Positions 3,153 through 62,898 of a stretch of 64,000 nt of DNA are shown here, in pieces. Source of the DNA: an uncultured Actinomycetota bacterium (GTDB lineage Bacteria; Actinomycetota; Actinomycetes; JACCUZ01). Every line of letters begins with the position of its first letter. Within the stretch, counting starts at the first letter, position 1. The notes beneath the pieces are model-generated. The model saw nothing but the letters and a program-made list of their open reading frames with translations, did no database searches and had not been told where the DNA came from. The stretch spans positions 86,899-150,898 of the forward strand of contig CAWARY010000020.1 in NCBI GenBank assembly GCA_963784645.1. The letters run 5' to 3'. The position numbers and the translations under genes were made by a program.

Positions 3153-3531
3153 CCCCGCAGCGGCCCTGGTTCACAGCGCCGCCTCGGACCACGTCGAGAC
3201 CGACGCCACGCCGGGAATGACCCGCCGCCGGGCGGTCGACACCGGCACGATGTGGGCCGGGACGGCCACCACGGCTCCCGGCATGGTGTCCGGCTGGCAC
3301 CACCACGGCGAGCACGAGTCCACGATCTACGTCGTGCGCGGCGCGCTGCACATGGACTTCGGTGCCGCTGGAGGCGAGGCCATCGATGCCGTGGTGGGCG
3401 ATGTCGTCCAGGTGCCCGCGGGCGCCGTGCACCGCGAGTCGAACCCGCTCGGCGAGGACTCCCTGCTGTTCGTGGTGCGCTGCGGGACGGGCGAGCCGAC
3501 GGTGAATGTCGACGGCCCGGCGCCCGGCTGA
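3142..3531 (+). CDS. Cupin domain protein. The start is uncertain; an alternative ATG lies at 3217.
   Basis: The motif GWHHHGEHESTIYVVRGALHMDFG...VVQVPAGAVHRESN is a two-His cupin signature. The gene overlaps the regulator stop by 11 nt if the ATG at 3142 is used. Confidence 0.5.
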   Translation: MPTDPAAALVHSAASDHVETDATPGMTRRRAVDTGTMWAGTATTAPGMVSGWHHHGEHESTIYVVRGALHMDFGAAGGEAIDAVVGDVVQVPAGAVHRESNPLGEDSLLFVVRCGTGEPTVNVDGPAPG

Positions 3532-3544
3532 CGCGAGCGGCAGG

Positions 3545-4777
3545 ATGTCGGGCATGACAGCTGCCGGCGGTCCCCACGTCCTCGACGTTCTCCGCGTCCG
3601 CGCCGCGTTCCCCGCGCTCGACCACGGCGTCGCACACTTCGACGGGCCGGGCGGCTCCCAGGTCCCCAGCACCGTCGCCGAAGCTGTCGCGCGGACCCTG
3701 ACGGCCGGGGTCGCCAACCGCGGCACCGTCACCGACGCGGAGCGCCGCGCCGAGTCCGCCGTGGTCGACGCCCGCCAGGCGATGGCCGACCTGGTGGGGG
3801 CGGACCCGCGCGGCGTGGTGTTCGGGCGCTCGATGACCCAGCTGACCTACGACGTGTCGCGGGCGCTCGCCAAGGACTGGGGACCGGGCGACGAGGTCGT
3901 CGTCACCCGACTCGACCACGACGCCAACATCCGCCCGTGGGTCGCGGCCGCCGAGAGCATCGGCGCCACCGTGCGGTGGGCCGGCTTCGACCGAGCGACC
4001 GGTGAGCTCGACGTCGCCGAGATCGCGTCGCTGCTGGGCGACCGCACCCGGCTGGTGGCGGTCACGGCTGCCTCGAACCTGCTCGGCACCCGACCCGACG
4101 TCCCGGCGATCGCTGCCGCCGCCCGGTCCGCCGGTGCCCTCGTGTACGTCGACGGCGTCCACCTCGCACCGCACGCACCGGTGGACGTGGCGGCGCTCGG
4201 CGCCGACTTCTTCGCCTGCTCGCCGTACAAGTTCTTCGGTCCGCACCTGGGTGCCGTCGTGGCCGACCCCGCACAGCTCGAGCGCCTGCACCCGGACAAG
4301 CTGCTGCCGTCGAGCGACGCGGTGCCCGAGCGGTTCGAGCTCGGCACGCTCCCCTACGAGCTGCTCTCGGGGGTGACGGCGACGGTCGATTTCATCGCGG
4401 ACCTGGTCCCCGGCCCGGGCGAGCGCCGCGCCCGCGTACTGGCCTCGATGGCGGCGGTCGAGGCACACGAGGACCGGTTGCTGCGGCGCCTGCTCACGGG
4501 GCTGGGCGACATCGACGGCATCACGTTGCACGGGGACCCGGCCCGGCGCACACCGACCGCCCTGTTCACCGTCGAGGGCCGCCGCGGTCGCGAGGTGCAC
4601 GAGCTGCTCGGTGCCGCGCGCATCAACGCACCCGCCGGGAGCTTCTACGCTCTCGAGGCGTCACGCTGGCTGGGGCTCGGTGACACCGGAGCGGTGCGCG
4701 CCGGGCTGGCACCGTACTCCGACGACGAGGACGTGTCCCGGCTGCTGGCAGCCGTCGCCGCCCTCGCCGTTCCGTGA
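3545..4777 (+). CDS. Aminotransferase class V / cysteine desulfurase-like PLP enzyme
   Basis: Fold-type I PLP enzyme features are present: SNLLG, DGVHLAPHAPVDVAALGADFFACSPYKFFGPHLG (the Lys in SPYKF is the putative PLP lysine), and a C-terminal YSDDEDV. The start was chosen at MSGMTAAGGP. Confidence 0.7.
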   Translation: MSGMTAAGGPHVLDVLRVRAAFPALDHGVAHFDGPGGSQVPSTVAEAVARTLTAGVANRGTVTDAERRAESAVVDARQAMADLVGADPRGVVFGRSMTQLTYDVSRALAKDWGPGDEVVVTRLDHDANIRPWVAAAESIGATVRWAGFDRATGELDVAEIASLLGDRTRLVAVTAASNLLGTRPDVPAIAAAARSAGALVYVDGVHLAPHAPVDVAALGADFFACSPYKFFGPHLGAVVADPAQLERLHPDKLLPSSDAVPERFELGTLPYELLSGVTATVDFIADLVPGPGERRARVLASMAAVEAHEDRLLRRLLTGLGDIDGITLHGDPARRTPTALFTVEGRRGREVHELLGAARINAPAGSFYALEASRWLGLGDTGAVRAGLAPYSDDEDVSRLLAAVAALAVP

Positions 4778-5230: not shown

Positions 5231-6010
5231 ATGCAGCCCACCCCCCGATCCCCTCTCGTCGTGCTCGCCGCCGTCGCCGGCACGCTCGCGCTCGTCGTGA
5301 CCGGCTGGCTGCTCGGGCACGGCGGCGCGACCGCCCCTGCGGCCGTCGCCGCCACCTCCTCGGGGGACGGCAGCGGCGACCGGGCACGGGACGGTGTCCT
5401 GGTCAGCGGTACCGGCGAGGTGACCGGACGGCCCGACACGCTCGTGGCGCAGTTCGGCGCCGAGGCAACCGCGGGATCCGTCGACGAGGCACTGGCCCGT
5501 GCCGACCGCGCGCTGGGCCGCATCACCGATGCGCTGCGCAAGGGTGGCGTGGACGACGCCGACTTGCAGACCGCAGGTCTCGACGTCTATCCCCAGTACT
5601 CGGACGACGGTCGGCAGGTCACCGGCTACCAGGCGCAGCAGCAGCTCACCGTCACCTTCCGCGACGTCGACGCCGCCGGCCGGCTGATCGGCCGGGCCGT
5701 GTCCGCCGGCGGCGACGCCGCTCGGCTGTCCGGGCTGTCGTTCCGCATCGACGACGACTCGGCCCTGCTGGCCGACGCCCGGCGCAAGGCGTTCGGCGAC
5801 GCCAAGGCGAAGGCCGAGCTGTACGGCGACGCCGCCGGCCGAGGGCTGGGACGCGTGGTCAGCGTCACCGAGACAGTCACCGGCAACGACCGCCCGTACC
5901 CCATGCCCGCCTTCGACGCCGCGCGCTCGTCGGCCGGCGGCGACGTGCAGATCGAGGCCGGTCAGCAGCAGCTGTCGGTCACCGTGACGGTCGAGTGGTC
6001 CTTCGACTGA
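5231..6010 (+). CDS. SIMPL domain protein (DUF541 / BP26-like periplasmic protein)
   Basis: GGAGGC lies 5 nt before the ATG. An N-terminal TM or signal region, LVVLAAVAGTLALVVTGWLL, is followed by the SIMPL-type repeated beta motif ...QAQQQLTVTF..VQIEAGQQQLSVTVTVEW. Confidence 0.7.
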   Translation: MQPTPRSPLVVLAAVAGTLALVVTGWLLGHGGATAPAAVAATSSGDGSGDRARDGVLVSGTGEVTGRPDTLVAQFGAEATAGSVDEALARADRALGRITDALRKGGVDDADLQTAGLDVYPQYSDDGRQVTGYQAQQQLTVTFRDVDAAGRLIGRAVSAGGDAARLSGLSFRIDDDSALLADARRKAFGDAKAKAELYGDAAGRGLGRVVSVTETVTGNDRPYPMPAFDAARSSAGGDVQIEAGQQQLSVTVTVEWSFD

Positions 6011-12379: not shown

Positions 12380-13594
12380 CTACGAGGCAGTCCGTCGGGA
12401 CAGCTCGAGAAGGGGGTCGGACAGCAGCGGGTCGAACGCCAGCTCGGCGGCCCCGAGCAGCGTCGAGTCGGCGCCGAGCCCGGGCGCGACGAGGCGCACC
12501 TGCTGGACCAGCGCCGCCAGGCCGGTGGCCTCGAACTCGGCACGCACGGTGGGGCCGGCAGCGAGCAGCACCGCCTCGAGGGCACCGCCCATGATCACGA
12601 CCTCGGGGTTGAGCACGTTGACCACGTTGCCCGTGCCGCGGCCCAGCCACGTCGCGACGTGCTGCAGCGCGTCGCGGGCCCGGGCGTCGCCCTCGGAGGC
12701 CGCGGCGACGACCTCGCGGACGCCGGCGAGCCCCCCGCCCGGAGGTCGGCCCGCGAGCTCGAACAACCGCTCCTCGCCGCACTCGGTCTCCCAGCAGCCG
12801 GTCGAGCCGCAGTGGCACGGCAGGCCGTCGGGGTTGACCAGCGAGTGGCCCACCTCGCCCGCGTAGCCGGCCCGGCCGCCGAGGGGGCTTCCGCCGGCGA
12901 AGATGCCGGCACCGAGGCCGGAGTGCCCGGAGAGGTAGACGGCGTCCTCGACCCCGGCCGCCGCTCCCCGCACGTGCTCCGCCCGGATGCCGAGGTCGGC
13001 GTCGTTGCCGACGGCGACCGGGAGGCCGAGGGCGTCGGCGAGCTCGTGCCCGAGCGGGACGTCGCGCCAGCCGAGGTTCGGGGCCTGCCGCACCTGGCCG
13101 TCGTGGCGACGGACCATGCCGGGCACGGCCACGCCGGCAGCGACGACCACGGCCCCCTTCCCGACCTCGGCGAGCAGCGCGGCGCCCTCGGAGGCCAGTG
13201 CCGAGGCGACTGCGCGGGGTCGCGGGGTCCGGCGTGGCCAGCTGCTGTCCCGACGCGACAGCACCACCCCACCGAGCCCGACCCGGGCCACCGTGAGGTG
13301 CGTGACGCCGACGTCCATCGCCAGCACCTGGACCTGCTCGGTCTCCGGCGAGACGACGTGCGACGGCCGACCGCCGCTGCTGGCCGCCCGGCCGGCCTCC
13401 TCCCGTACCAGGCCGGCCGCCGCGAGCTCACCGGTGAGGCCACCGATCGTGCTGCGGTTGAGGCCCAGCACCGCCGTCAGGCGGCTGCGCGCGGTCGGCC
13501 CGTGCACGTGGACGTAGCGCAGCAGAGTCGACAGGTTGCCGCGCCGGACGTCTTCGGACCTCGCACCACGAGCGCCTCGAGCAAGGACCGTCAT
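12380..13594 (-). CDS. ROK family transcriptional regulator; likely the xylose repressor XylR
   Basis: An N-terminal wHTH ([38 protein letters not shown]) is followed by a ROK sugar-kinase-like domain with the Zn motif [10 protein letters not shown]. The gene sits between the xylose ABC genes and xylA on the same strand. Confidence 0.8.
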
Positions 13595-15811: not shown

Positions 15812-16939
15812 CTAGCTCAGGCCGAGCTTGGTGCAGTCGGCCGCGAACGCGCCCGTGCAGACCTTGTCCACCGTGGTGTACCCGGCGTCGAAGGGTGCCT
15901 TGATGTTGTCCTGCGTGACCCACACGGGCGTCGCGAAGACCGAGTCGACCTTCTTGTTCGCCTGGGTGTCGTCGACGGTGCCGTTGACCAGCGAGGCCGC
16001 CGAGCCGTCGTCCTTGAGGATCGCGATGGCGAGCTTCGCAGCCGCCTCGGCCTCGAGGTTGACGTCCTTGAAGACGGTGCCGCACTGGGTGCCGGCGACG
16101 ACCCGCTGGAGACCCTCGTCGGAGGCGTCCTGGCCGGTGACCGGGACCTTGCCGGCGAGACCGTTGTTCTTCAGCACGGTGACGATGCCGCCGGCCATGG
16201 TGTCGTTGGCCGAGATGACGCCGTCGATCTTGCCCTTGTTCTGGGTGAAGATCTGCTCGAAGGTGGTCTGCGCCACGGTGGCGTCCCACTTGCCGGTCTG
16301 GTCGCCGACCTTGGTGTAGTCACCCGAGTCGTACTTGGCCTGCAGGGCACCGTCATAGCCCTGCTTGAACAGCGCGGCGTTGTTGTCGGTCGGGTCGCCG
16401 TTGATCTCGGCGATGTTCGCCTTGGTCTTGCCGGCGTCGTCGAGGCACTTGATCAGGCCGTCACCCATGAGCTTGCCGACCTGGACGTTGTCGAAGGACA
16501 CGTAGAAGTCGGCCGAGCCACCCAGGGTCAGGCGGTCGTAGTCGATGCTCGGGATGCCCGAGTCCTTGGCCTTCTTCTCGCAGGCCGCGCCGCTGTCGGA
16601 GTCGAGGTTGACGATCATGAGGACGTTGACGCCCTCGTTGATCATCGAGTCGCACAGCGAGGAGAACTTGCTCACATCCTTGGAGGCGTTCTGGATGTTG
16701 GCCGTGTAGCCGGCGGCCTCGATGGCCTTCTGCAGGGCCGGCCGGTCGTTGTTCTCCCAGCGCGGCGAGGTGGCCGCGTCCGGCAGGATCACGCCGACCT
16801 TGCCGCCTGCGGCGGCGCTGCTGGACGAGCTGCCGCTGCCGCTGCCGGTGGTCGAGTCGCCGCCGCTGCTGCCGCCGCAGGCGGTCAGGAGCAGCGGGAG
16901 GACGACCAGGCCGGCCACCGCCATCTTTCGCATCCGCAT
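15812..16939 (-). CDS. Sugar ABC transporter substrate-binding lipoprotein (xylF-like)
   Basis: Translation begins MRMRKMAVAGLVVLPLLLTACGG, a lipobox. It is followed by a periplasmic-binding-protein type I fold composition. The gene is the first in the xylose ABC cluster. Confidence 0.8.
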   Translation of the reverse strand: MRMRKMAVAGLVVLPLLLTACGGSSGGDSTTGSGSGSSSSSAAAGGKVGVILPDAATSPRWENNDRPALQKAIEAAGYTANIQNASKDVSKFSSLCDSMINEGVNVLMIVNLDSDSGAACEKKAKDSGIPSIDYDRLTLGGSADFYVSFDNVQVGKLMGDGLIKCLDDAGKTKANIAEINGDPTDNNAALFKQGYDGALQAKYDSGDYTKVGDQTGKWDATVAQTTFEQIFTQNKGKIDGVISANDTMAGGIVTVLKNNGLAGKVPVTGQDASDEGLQRVVAGTQCGTVFKDVNLEAEAAAKLAIAILKDDGSAASLVNGTVDDTQANKKVDSVFATPVWVTQDNIKAPFDAGYTTVDKVCTGAFAADCTKLGLS

Positions 16940-17146
16940 GACGTGGTGCCCTTCCGATCGGGAGCGGCACCGAGGGGACGGGCCGCAGGAATGTTGTGGG
17001 CCACAACGTACTGACCCGCAAGCGCCCGGGGAAGTCACAAGTTCGTAACGAGGCCGAAACGCCCGAGTCGTCCCGTGGATGCCACCGGACTCACAGGTAA
17101 CCCGCCGCGGTGGGGCCATTGCCGGCGCAGACCAGTCAGGTCCAGT

Positions 17147-17262
17147 AGGTCGGTGACCCGCCGTCGCGGGTGCGGTCAAGCCTGCGGGTCCGTGACCCGC
17201 CGTCGAGGCTCGAGGTCTGAGCGCGTGGGTCGGTGGCCCGCCGTCGCGGGTGCAGGTCAGAG
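17147..17262. repeat. Three direct copies (about 33 bp each, one degenerate) of GGTCGGTG(A/G)CCCGCCGTCGCGGGTGC(A/G)GGTCA. Further inverted copies of the GACCCGCCGTCG core lie at 17485, 17543 and 17566.
   Basis: The repeats were read directly from the sequence. Copies 17148-17180 and 17229-17262 are about 94% identical. Each contains an ACCCGC-N4-GCGGGT internal inverted repeat. Confidence 0.6.
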
Positions 17263-17335
17263 CGGCCAGGACGCGGACGCTGCACCTGCCGGGCGGGGCG
17301 CCGTCGGTCTCATTCCGTGGGATGACCGGGGCGCT

Positions 17336-17396
17336 TCACATGGCGTACTGGTGCTTTGCGTGGCGTGCACGCCATGCAAAGCACCCGTACGCCATG
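17336..17396. repeat. An imperfect palindrome of about 60 bp, predicted to form a long hairpin
   Basis: catggcgtactggtgctttgcgtggcgtgc / gcacgccatgcaaagcacccgtacgccatg are 27-nt arms with 2 mismatches. The palindrome produces mirror-image peptides in track ORFs 17075..17530 (+) and 17310..17576 (-). Confidence 0.6.
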
Positions 17397-17582
17397 CCAA
17401 GTGGTGCGGGTGTCCCAGGGATCGAGACCGACGGCGGCCGGCGCGGCAGGCGAAGGGTGTCCGTGTCCCCAGCCGCTCTGACGCCGACCACGACGGCGGG
17501 TCAGGGGATCAGGGATCTGACCCTCGCTGACGCGAGTCGACCACGGCGGGTCAGGCTGGGCCCGACCCGCCGTCACCCGCCC

Positions 17583-20387
<2,805 letters not shown>

Positions 20388-32027: not shown

Positions 32028-32174
32028 GGGACGGCAGTTCCCCACCATCGTGGCGCCTGTCAGAGCGGCTTCAGAGGAGTCCTTGGCCCCGCCGGTGCCG
32101 ACGTGACCGGAGTGGACCGGCTCCGCACGGGGTTTCGCGCCACCTTGCCGGTCCACTTCACGAGACGGAGCGAA

Positions 32175-32219
32175 GTGGCCCCGCCAGGCGGTCGGAACTC
32201 GACTGCCTGGCGGGGCCAC
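32175..32219. terminator. A perfect 15-bp-stem GC hairpin (GTGGCCCCGCCAGGC-N15-GCCTGGCGGGGCCAC) between the convergent genes
   Basis: Read directly from the sequence. It lies between the DUF3093 stop at 32027 and the stop at 32413 of the convergent gene. It has no T-tract. Confidence 0.4.
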
Positions 32220-32412
32220 TTGGCTCGTGGGGCCACGACGGCGGGCCATCAGCGGACGGCGAGTGCCGGCCCCTCGTCCGAAGCCGCACTGACCGAAGCA
32301 CCTACGGCGGGCGGTGGCCGACGGCGGGTGGCCCAACACCTCATCCCAGGCTGCACTGACCGCACCACCAACGTCGGGCAGCGGCGATCAGGAACTGAAC
32401 CGCCCCTCGCCC

Positions 32413-44630: not shown

Positions 44631-44707
44631 AGCAGGAGGCTAGCGAGGCCCGCGCGATCCGCCCCTGCCGCAGCACCGGCGGATCGCGCCTGCCTCGCCG
44701 ACCGGGG

Positions 44708-45794: not shown

Positions 45795-46063
45795 CGCACA
45801 GCAGCAGCGGGCCGACTACGGCGCGGAACCTGCGCCGCCGTCGTTGGCCGACTCAGAGCAGCCAGGACGATGCAGTGGCCGGCACGCCGTCCGCGCCCGA
45901 CCGCTCTGTGGCGTGCGGGCCATGTGGCCCCGCACGGGGGTCGGAAAGCAGTGCTGCAGCGGGGCCACTCCGCTGGTCGTCGGCCGCTGCTCCCGCGTCC
46001 AGGCGCCGGTGACCAGAGCCGGACCCCAGACCAGCTGCCGATGGCTTTCGGCGGCCCCCGCCG

Positions 46064-49958: not shown

Positions 49959-49970
49959 CCCCCAAGATCC

Positions 49971-50023
49971 TTTGTGCGTCGACACACCGCGCCGTCGGCG
50001 TGTCCGGTGTGTCGACGCACAAA
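49971..50023. promoter_or_regulatory. A perfect 19-bp inverted repeat, TTTGTGCGTCGACACACCG-N15-CGGTGTGTCGACGCACAAA. The spacer is itself near-palindromic (CGCCGtCGGCG).
   Basis: Read from the sequence. It lies 13 nt after the eamA stop and 58 nt before the acyl-CoA synthetase start. Confidence 0.45.
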
Positions 50024-50080
50024 CGGTCCGGGTGACCGACCGGCGTTGACCCCCGTGAGGCGCGGTGCGAGGGTCACGGC

Positions 50081-51807: not shown

Positions 51808-51877
51808 TCGTTTGCGACCTCGGCCCCCGACACGCCGGCGCTTCGTCCGGCGAGTCGGGGCACGAGGTCGCAAACGA
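51808..51877. promoter_or_regulatory. A 15-bp perfect inverted repeat (TCGTTTGCGACCTCG-N40-CGAGGTCGCAAACGA) enclosing nested GC-rich inverted repeats, in the 5' region of parC
   Basis: Read from the sequence. It lies 30 nt after the acyl-CoA synthetase stop and about 140 nt upstream of the parC GTG. Confidence 0.45.
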
Positions 51878-62754: not shown

Positions 62755-62898
62755 GCCTGCGACCCCGTCCCCGTGATCCACAGTGGATCTGCTGGAGATT
62801 GTCCAACGGATCCGCTGTGGATCACCGCCTCGTGGCAGGTGCCGTGTACCAGCGGCCGACGCCCGAGGCACGTGTGCCACGTGCGCGGCGCGTCGTGC

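Follow-up and report, generated by a model that had tools for sequence, protein, structure and literature searches.

A probable palindromic insertion element behind the aconitase gene of an uncultured actinomycete, from an undescribed repeat family

Introduction

Palindromic repeats of the BIME, ERIC and NEMIS families have been described at the 3' ends of genes, where they are co-transcribed and stabilise mRNA (PMC1590033). For BIMEs and REPINs, transcription of the units together with the upstream gene, and stabilisation or termination of its mRNA by them, are likewise presumed. Here we describe a repeat-dense spacer from an uncultured actinomycete lineage, in which such elements are little catalogued, and compare it with these systems. 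The spacer lies in a 64-kb stretch of DNA that was analysed as a whole and is called the window below. In our reading, to which we give a probability of roughly 65%, it holds one copy of a palindromic insertion element, non-coding and non-autonomous, with the history proposed below, placed in the MITE/BIME-REP/ERIC/Correia class by its architecture and behaviour rather than by the strict criteria of target duplication, parent insertion sequence, RAYT and high copy number. As such it is a rather ordinary representative of bacterial junk or terminator-like repeats. The family to which it belongs is undescribed: no description was found in Rfam or in the literature searched for the apex motif and for actinobacterial REP, RAYT and MITE elements. 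A family of palindromic intergenic repeats is thereby added for this lineage.

Results

Gene context and architecture of the element

All genes around the repeat region are on the minus strand. The upstream neighbour is acn, which encodes aconitate hydratase (17583-20387, minus strand), and the element occupies the place where an acn 3' untranslated region would be expected. The spacer between acn and the next gene is 643 bp long and is followed by a gene for a Peripla_BP_4 sugar-binding protein (xylF-like, 15812-16939) and then by ABC transporter, ROK (12380-13594), xylose-isomerase-like and FGGY genes. The solute-binding protein, the ROK regulator and the aconitase named in the original prediction were thus all confirmed. 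The Acn protein of the window is 100% identical to P0245, whose cluster includes a protein named "MAG: Sporichthyaceae bacterium", and shares 98% identity with proteins from two MAGs, GCA_038246545.1 and GCA_039930885.1, of which one bears the label Sporichthyaceae bacterium.

The repeats that had been reported piece by piece in this spacer are all present and above chance, with small errors in their coordinates. What had been missed is that they form a single imperfect palindrome of about 440 bp (element E1, 17147-17585, no strand), with a left arm at 17147-17367 and a right arm at 17368-17585, both of about 220 nt and 82% matching. The right end overlaps the TGA stop codon of acn. When 17095-17367 was aligned with the reverse complement of 17368-17585, 160 of 195 aligned columns were identical, with indels, and the three left units paired with three right units. 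A BLAST comparison of the region with its own reverse complement gave an E value of 8e-47 over 274 nt. Folded as single-stranded DNA the element reaches a z score of -11.7 against shuffles, and as RNA -13 to -14 on either strand.

For the family, homologous copies of which are described below (loci with L numbers), we propose an archetype in the order terminal module, alpha arm, 70-nt central hairpin, beta arm and inverted terminal module. The terminal module, of about 40 bp, consists of a GACCCGCCGTCG hairpin and a GTCAGAGCGGC box, and tandem copies of it end each arm of E1. On the xylF side three modules stand in tandem (17148-17264, plus orientation), as found with both Tandem Repeats Finder and a module HMM; on the acn side the module HMM finds two in inverted orientation (17466-17506 and 17521-17556, minus). 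The window exceeds the closely related locus L099 by two modules at the xylF end and by one at the acn end. A degenerate outermost unit, GGTAACCCGCCGCGGTGGG (17096-17114, plus), matches unit 1 at 79% and is also present in L099 and L001. The alpha arm (17254-17331, plus) carries a GGTCAGAGCGGC box, a AGGACGCGGACGCTG block and a CGCCGTCGGTC block, all of which are kept in L001, L099, L070 and L077. Its inverted partner, the beta arm (17404-17484, minus), has a GAGCGGCTGGGGA-type box in common with the beta arm of L077, with L032 and with a second element of the window, E2. Between the arms lies the near-perfect central hairpin of 72 nt (17332-17403, no strand; -53 to -55 kcal/mol on either strand), which holds the apex palindrome GCGTGGCGTGCACGCCATGC at 17358-17377 and is the best-conserved part of the family. 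The 60-bp palindrome previously placed at 17336-17396 is real and corresponds to this hairpin. A hairpin just 3' of the acn stop had also been correctly recognised: it lies at 17543-17573 (minus), is built of two oppositely oriented unit cores with 14-nt arms, a 3-nt loop and 93% complementarity, and folds at -32.2 kcal/mol (z -3.1), with an equivalent hairpin in L099.

Other details of the repeats required adjustment. The 12-mer GACCCGCCGTCG, said to recur six times in both orientations, is indeed found six times, but only three copies are exact (17155 plus, 17194 plus and 17491 minus), the others having one mismatch (17235 plus, 17541 minus and 17564 plus), and the positions given were 0-6 nt off. 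With up to one mismatch the window contains 13 copies against 5.65 +/- 2.4 expected, and six of the 13 fall inside 420 bp. The three direct repeats of about 33 bp correspond to a tandem array at 17148-17264 with a period of 41, 2.9 copies and 78% matches (Tandem Repeats Finder); two of them had been described as about 94% identical, and copies 1 and 3 are 91% identical over 35 nt. An ACCCGC-N4-GCGGGT inverted repeat, ascribed to every direct repeat, occurs in units 1 and 3, as ACCCGC-CGTC-GCGGGT, and not in all three.

The earlier proposal that the region contains no credible ORF was upheld: none of its ORFs, pseudo-ORFs included, hits a Pfam domain, and the region is missing from orthologous loci. 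A peptide-like conservation across the hairpin, LAWxxGALHGVHA, was considered and rejected as a by-product of DNA conservation, given that there is no conserved start, that most changes are non-synonymous and that the extents of the ORFs differ. No tRNA was found in the region.

Filled and empty sites at the acn locus

The acn locus was compared across the Sporichthyaceae-type MAG loci L001-L005, L099 and L100. Both arms, with fewer modules, are present in L099 and L100 (Acn 98% identical to that of the window), and L001 (94%) has the central hairpin with one arm, alpha. The element is absent from L002, L003 and L005 (Acn 94%, 92.5% and 91% identical; L005 is P0005), which keep the acn-xylFGH-ROK-xylAB gene order; their acn-xylF spacers measure only 184-204 bp, and in each a small hairpin of its own follows acn. 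Presence and absence place the insertion in an ancestor shared by the lineages of the window, L099 and L001. Relative to L099, the window has about 72 extra nt on the xylF side and about 50 on the acn side. L004 (Acn 92% identical) lacks the ABC transporter genes: at 5796-5890 acn is directly followed by the ROK gene, and the three transporter genes are gone.

Copies at other loci

The 20-nt apex palindrome was used as a probe in one metagenome scan and matched 64 loci. Most were unrelated: low-GC foldback repeats made up about 35 of them, and chance or coding matches in high-GC DNA about 20. Three loci were homologous well beyond the probe. The first, L070/L044, lies between a gene for an Fpg/Nei glycosylase (nei) and a convergent clgR-like gene, L070 having the alpha arm and the centre. 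The second, L077, lies between a small gene (ORF 1645-2049) and a convergent pepN; here 278 nt align, including both arms and a terminal unit. The third, L032, follows a gene for a HAD-type hydrolase. The central hairpin of the window is 85-88% identical to those of L070, L044 and L077, all from soil metagenomes, and four of the five known loci have the same apex 20-mer, whereas the apex of L099, a copy at the acn locus, has diverged. A profile built from the copies of the element scores those same copies at E values of 1e-37 to 1e-62. Every known copy sits behind a stop codon.

The low-GC foldback repeats were tried as members of the family and set aside as unrelated, with little match beyond the apex and a few adjoining bases. 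These repeats (within L017-L080; for instance L028 3704-3723 and L075 1799-1818) have a GC content of 35-46%, come from JGI metagenome contigs, are centred on the 20-nt palindrome GCGTGGCGTGCACGCCACGC and are flanked by (GT)n tracts; many of them lie at contig ends. They seem to belong to a different, probably eukaryotic, genome with which the apex is shared by coincidence.

At the nei site the insertion can be followed in the same way as at acn. In L070 about 230 extra nt are inserted directly after the nei stop codon, whereas the nei-clgR site is empty in L097, L098, L101, L102 and L103, where spacers of 114-194 bp contain only a conserved terminator-like hairpin. L101 and L099 are parts of one MAG. 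The 3.5-Mb contig that carries L003 also encodes a Nei with 86% identity to that of L070, which places the L070 and L003 organisms in one clade. Filled and empty sites at both acn and nei indicate insertion polymorphism at two independent loci. When filled and empty sites at these loci were aligned, no target-site duplication was recognised, because the empty sites, like the flanks that would have to give the exact ends, are too diverged. In L098, a stretch of about ten GGTCAG(G/C)(A/C) repeats was noticed at the 3' end of the clgR-like gene (3470-3550); it extends the called protein to 141 aa, as against 100-113 aa in relatives.

Two short-read contigs break off within the element or immediately behind it (L100, contig end 3002; L032, contig end 1730). 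This indicates that the repeat breaks short-read assemblies and makes the element profile useful for MAG curation.

A second element in the window

A cluster of weak unit matches at 32.0-32.4 kb led to the identification of E2 (32028-32412, no strand), a diverged relative of E1 that lies in a 385-bp spacer between convergent genes. At both ends, in inverted orientation, E2 has an exact GTCAGAGCGGC box with an adjoining CCCGCCGT.G unit, plus one extra tandem module. Its central hairpin (32168-32226, 27-bp arms) differs from the centre of E1, and its DNA fold has a z score of -6.0. What E2 has in common with E1 is the terminal modules only, at moderate identity. An alignment of ten ends defines a module CCCGCCGTCG-N9-GTCAGAGCGGC(T)..GGA that is common to the ends of E1 and E2, the beta end of L077, L001 and L032, and CCCGCCGTCG-N9-GTCAGAGCGGC stands inverted at both ends of E1 and of E2 and at the beta end of L077. 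The module HMM scores E2 at 25.8-27.8 bits (E 2e-7 to 7e-7), its training alignment having included the three E2 sequences. With E2 so included, only the modules of E1 and E2 reach E<1e-6 in the window, and 20 shuffles peak at 10.7 bits; with an earlier HMM made without E2, the three best off-locus matches all fell in the E2 spacer, at E values of 0.2-0.7 each. The module HMM counts about nine modules at two to three loci in the 64-kb window.

A further spacer between convergent genes, 45795-46063, was considered as a third copy and not counted (12 bits, E 0.017, fold z -1.1). It contains a module-like stretch, CGCCGCCGTCG..TCAGAGCAGCCAGGACG, and a small hairpin, and may be a decayed remnant. 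Other strong hairpins of the window, at 51808-51877, 49966-50028, 44643-44698 and 62773-62825, have 24-31-nt arms that are 85-92% complementary and are unrelated in sequence to the element.

In all, copies are dispersed over at least five loci (acn, nei/clgR, pepN, HAD hydrolase and 32 kb of the window), two of which have empty orthologous sites.

Copy number and the question of a REP system

The 20-nt unit was searched in 185,579 species genomes, among which the source genome is not included, and gave 11 single, chance-level matches that did not extend; it is thus no widespread REP. With the profile of the whole element, neither the window nor about 138 kb of DNA from related MAGs yielded an additional copy; a distant-mode BLAST against plasmids and phages found no match, and viral contigs gave no apex match and 16 seed matches to the 17-nt unit pattern. 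The copy number looks low and the family, as far as seen, is confined to Sporichthyaceae-like actinomycetes.

These searches bear on a strict REP/REPIN system, in which the 40-bp modules would be REPs moved by a RAYT (an IS200/IS605-type Y1 transposase) and the palindrome a REPIN-like doublet or cluster. Several features would suit it. Like the imperfect palindromic units of 20-40 nt in REP systems, the short palindromic units found here are extragenic and located at gene 3' ends and between convergent genes, and the modules occur both as inverted pairs that make a larger hairpin and as tandem clusters of variable number. But no sign was seen of the high copy number (tens to hundreds per genome) of such systems, the exact unit being single-copy or absent in the species genomes; the modules are only 60-80% alike; and the conserved unit that spreads takes in some 230 bp of arms and centre, well above the size of a REPIN. 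We therefore regard a strict REP/REPIN system as unlikely. The earlier suggestion of a decayed MITE/REP-like element keeps its core, since we find a dispersed palindromic family of insertion type, but the decay was not borne out, the window copy being the most intact of the family, and the exact 33-bp unit is no widespread REP.

Divergence of the element and loss of pairing

Between the window and L099 the element is 65-82% identical, while fourfold-degenerate sites of acn are 90% and the xylF promoter block 94% identical. The element therefore diverges faster than synonymous sites of acn, although GC3 bias constrains fourfold sites at 73% GC. Long-range pairing is not kept either: the DNA fold has a z score of -11.7 in the window, but L099 reaches only -1.6 and L077 -4.0. 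The central hairpin alone is maintained, with 32 consensus pairs over six copies, seven of which show double-sided compensatory changes.

This pattern decides largely against a structured non-coding RNA, whether a small RNA gene or a cis-acting acn 3'UTR or xylF leader that would depend on the long hairpin. Such an RNA would account for the very stable fold of both strands, for the seven compensated pairs across six copies and for the identity of the apex 20-mer at four of the five loci, and the aconitases of E. coli have been reported to bind the 3' UTRs of their own mRNAs. Against it, the long-range pairing is lost in L099 and weak in L077, the divergence exceeds that of synonymous sites, and the absence of the element from close relatives indicates that it is dispensable. 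Rfam 15 contains no family that matches the region at or above gathering score, the only sub-threshold matches being miRNA-precursor models of the kind that any long hairpin gives, and no promoter-like or U-tract terminator-like site was found in 16800-17700. The more stable strand varies among the copies and is the antisense strand in the window, which leaves no strand signal for an RNA gene; the attempt to infer a strand from G-U pairs was dropped, the result being inconsistent between copies. A structured non-coding RNA, which the original prediction had listed among its options, is improbable on these grounds.

An ancestral two-armed unit

The alpha arm of the window is 78% identical to the alpha arms of L099 and L001, and the beta arm is 81% identical to that of L099 and only 73% identical to the alpha arm of the window itself. 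Both arm types recur at other loci. As the arms group by side and not by genome, the two-armed unit is ancestral and has spread as a whole, and the one-armed copies are deletion derivatives. A three-base CAC/GCC mismatch at the base of the central hairpin has one orientation with respect to the alpha arm in the window and L001 and appears as the exact reverse complement in L070 and L077, so the centre occurs in both orientations relative to the arms. This fits either an inversion between the arms or a mosaic, nested origin.

The same data were set against a purely local product, in which an ancestral terminator hairpin, never mobile, would have expanded where it stood through slippage and fold-back inverted duplication. 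It is true that the number of modules shifts between near relatives, that the near-perfect central hairpin could seed fold-back synthesis and that the window copy is unusually symmetric. But homologous copies with both arm types exist at no fewer than four unrelated loci, the arms group by side across loci, and a clean insert of about 230 bp is visible at the nei site. A local origin is contradicted as a full explanation and in that form is quite improbable; local growth may nevertheless have supplied the extra modules of the window copy.

A conserved block next to xylF

Outside the element, a block of about 130 bp (16942-17068, minus), beyond the coordinates of the original prediction, hardly varies among five orthologous loci, whether or not they carry the element. 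It contains a Shine-Dalgarno sequence and a perfect 15-bp palindrome, GTTGTGGGCCACAAC, at 16993-17007, which is unique in the 64-kb window. From its conservation and position, this block is the likely candidate promoter/operator of the xyl ABC operon. The idea that the repeats themselves are an operator array, with spaced GACCCGCCGTCG units binding dimers of the adjacent ROK (XylR-like) regulator to control xylFGH, draws on units 39-41 bp apart (about four helical turns), on the 6-4-6 inverted repeat held by two units and on their location upstream of xylF, but appears already close to refuted from the comparative data and is very improbable, since L002, L003 and L005 have the same operon and ROK gene entirely without units, L099, the relative with 98%-identical Acn, has fewer of them, the same modules stand behind unrelated genes, and the sequence that is conserved upstream of xylF is the palindrome-bearing block. 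Relatives without the element that keep the gene order and this nearly invariant block next to xylF speak strongly against the array. A tempting but wrong regulatory annotation can thus be removed, the likely xyl operator being the palindrome at 16993-17007 and not the repeats.

Discussion

We favour a palindromic insertion element as the explanation for the acn-xylF spacer. On this basis, a copy would have been inserted between the acn stop codon and the xylF promoter and would then have changed quickly, with slipped-strand tandem duplication altering the number of its modules. The element begins at the acn stop codon and the conserved xylF promoter lies downstream of it, a position from which it most likely forms the 3' end of the acn transcript and is probably co-transcribed with the gene. 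The stop-proximal hairpin, also present in L099, and the central hairpin may then replace the small terminator-like hairpin of relatives with empty sites. The hairpins of E1 are GC-rich but have no T run and, lacking U-tracts, are not canonical intrinsic terminators; they could form, stabilise or protect the 3' end and shield the xyl operon with its promoter from acn, roles of the kind described for BIME, ERIC and NEMIS repeats (PMC1590033). If they do form the acn 3' end, the locus shows in nature how a mobile element takes the place of a gene's terminator-like hairpin.

A bolder and unlikely extension would be an active hairpin-recognised mobile system new to Actinobacteria, in which a single-strand (HUH/Y1-type) or other enzyme reads the invariant apex TGGCGTGCACGCCA and/or the terminal modules and copies the alpha-centre-beta unit behind stop codons. 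If true, replication through a folded single strand, and not random decay, would have left the two-way centre and the module numbers that differ on both arms.

Among known systems, the architecture recalls that of eukaryotic foldback elements, with long inverted arms of tandem sub-repeats around a central segment and a centre found in both orientations (one way in the window and L001, the other in L070 and L077); this likeness is architectural only, with no relation in sequence or host. Like MITEs, which are non-autonomous derivatives of insertion sequences, the element is non-coding, has inverted termini and dispersed copies and shows insertion polymorphism. Unlike in MITEs, one-armed copies are common, no target-site duplication was seen at the diverged sites and no parent insertion sequence with matching ends is known. 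With ERIC/IRU of enterobacteria and Correia/NEMIS of Neisseria it has in common that imperfect palindromes lie in intergenic DNA that is, or in this case probably is, transcribed (PMC1590033), that they are present or absent at orthologous sites and occur in both orientations, that size variants arise with internal or terminal changes, and that long RNA hairpins can form. ERIC and Correia elements measure 100-160 bp and have defined terminal inverted repeats of 20-30 bp, whereas the palindrome described here reaches 440 bp and ends in tandem modules; where studied they also show a TA target duplication, while none is detectable here, the empty sites being diverged. The resemblance to the BIMEs and REPINs of E. 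coli lies in the mosaic of short palindromic units plus other motifs, inverted and in tandem (PMC1590033), in a unit number that varies between close relatives and in the extragenic location at 3' ends and between convergent genes. It differs from them in that the unit which spreads measures about 300 bp, its long arms enclosing a 70-nt central hairpin, in an apparently low copy number, in having no known link to a transposase or RAYT gene, in modules that are only 60-80% alike and in its actinobacterial lineage.
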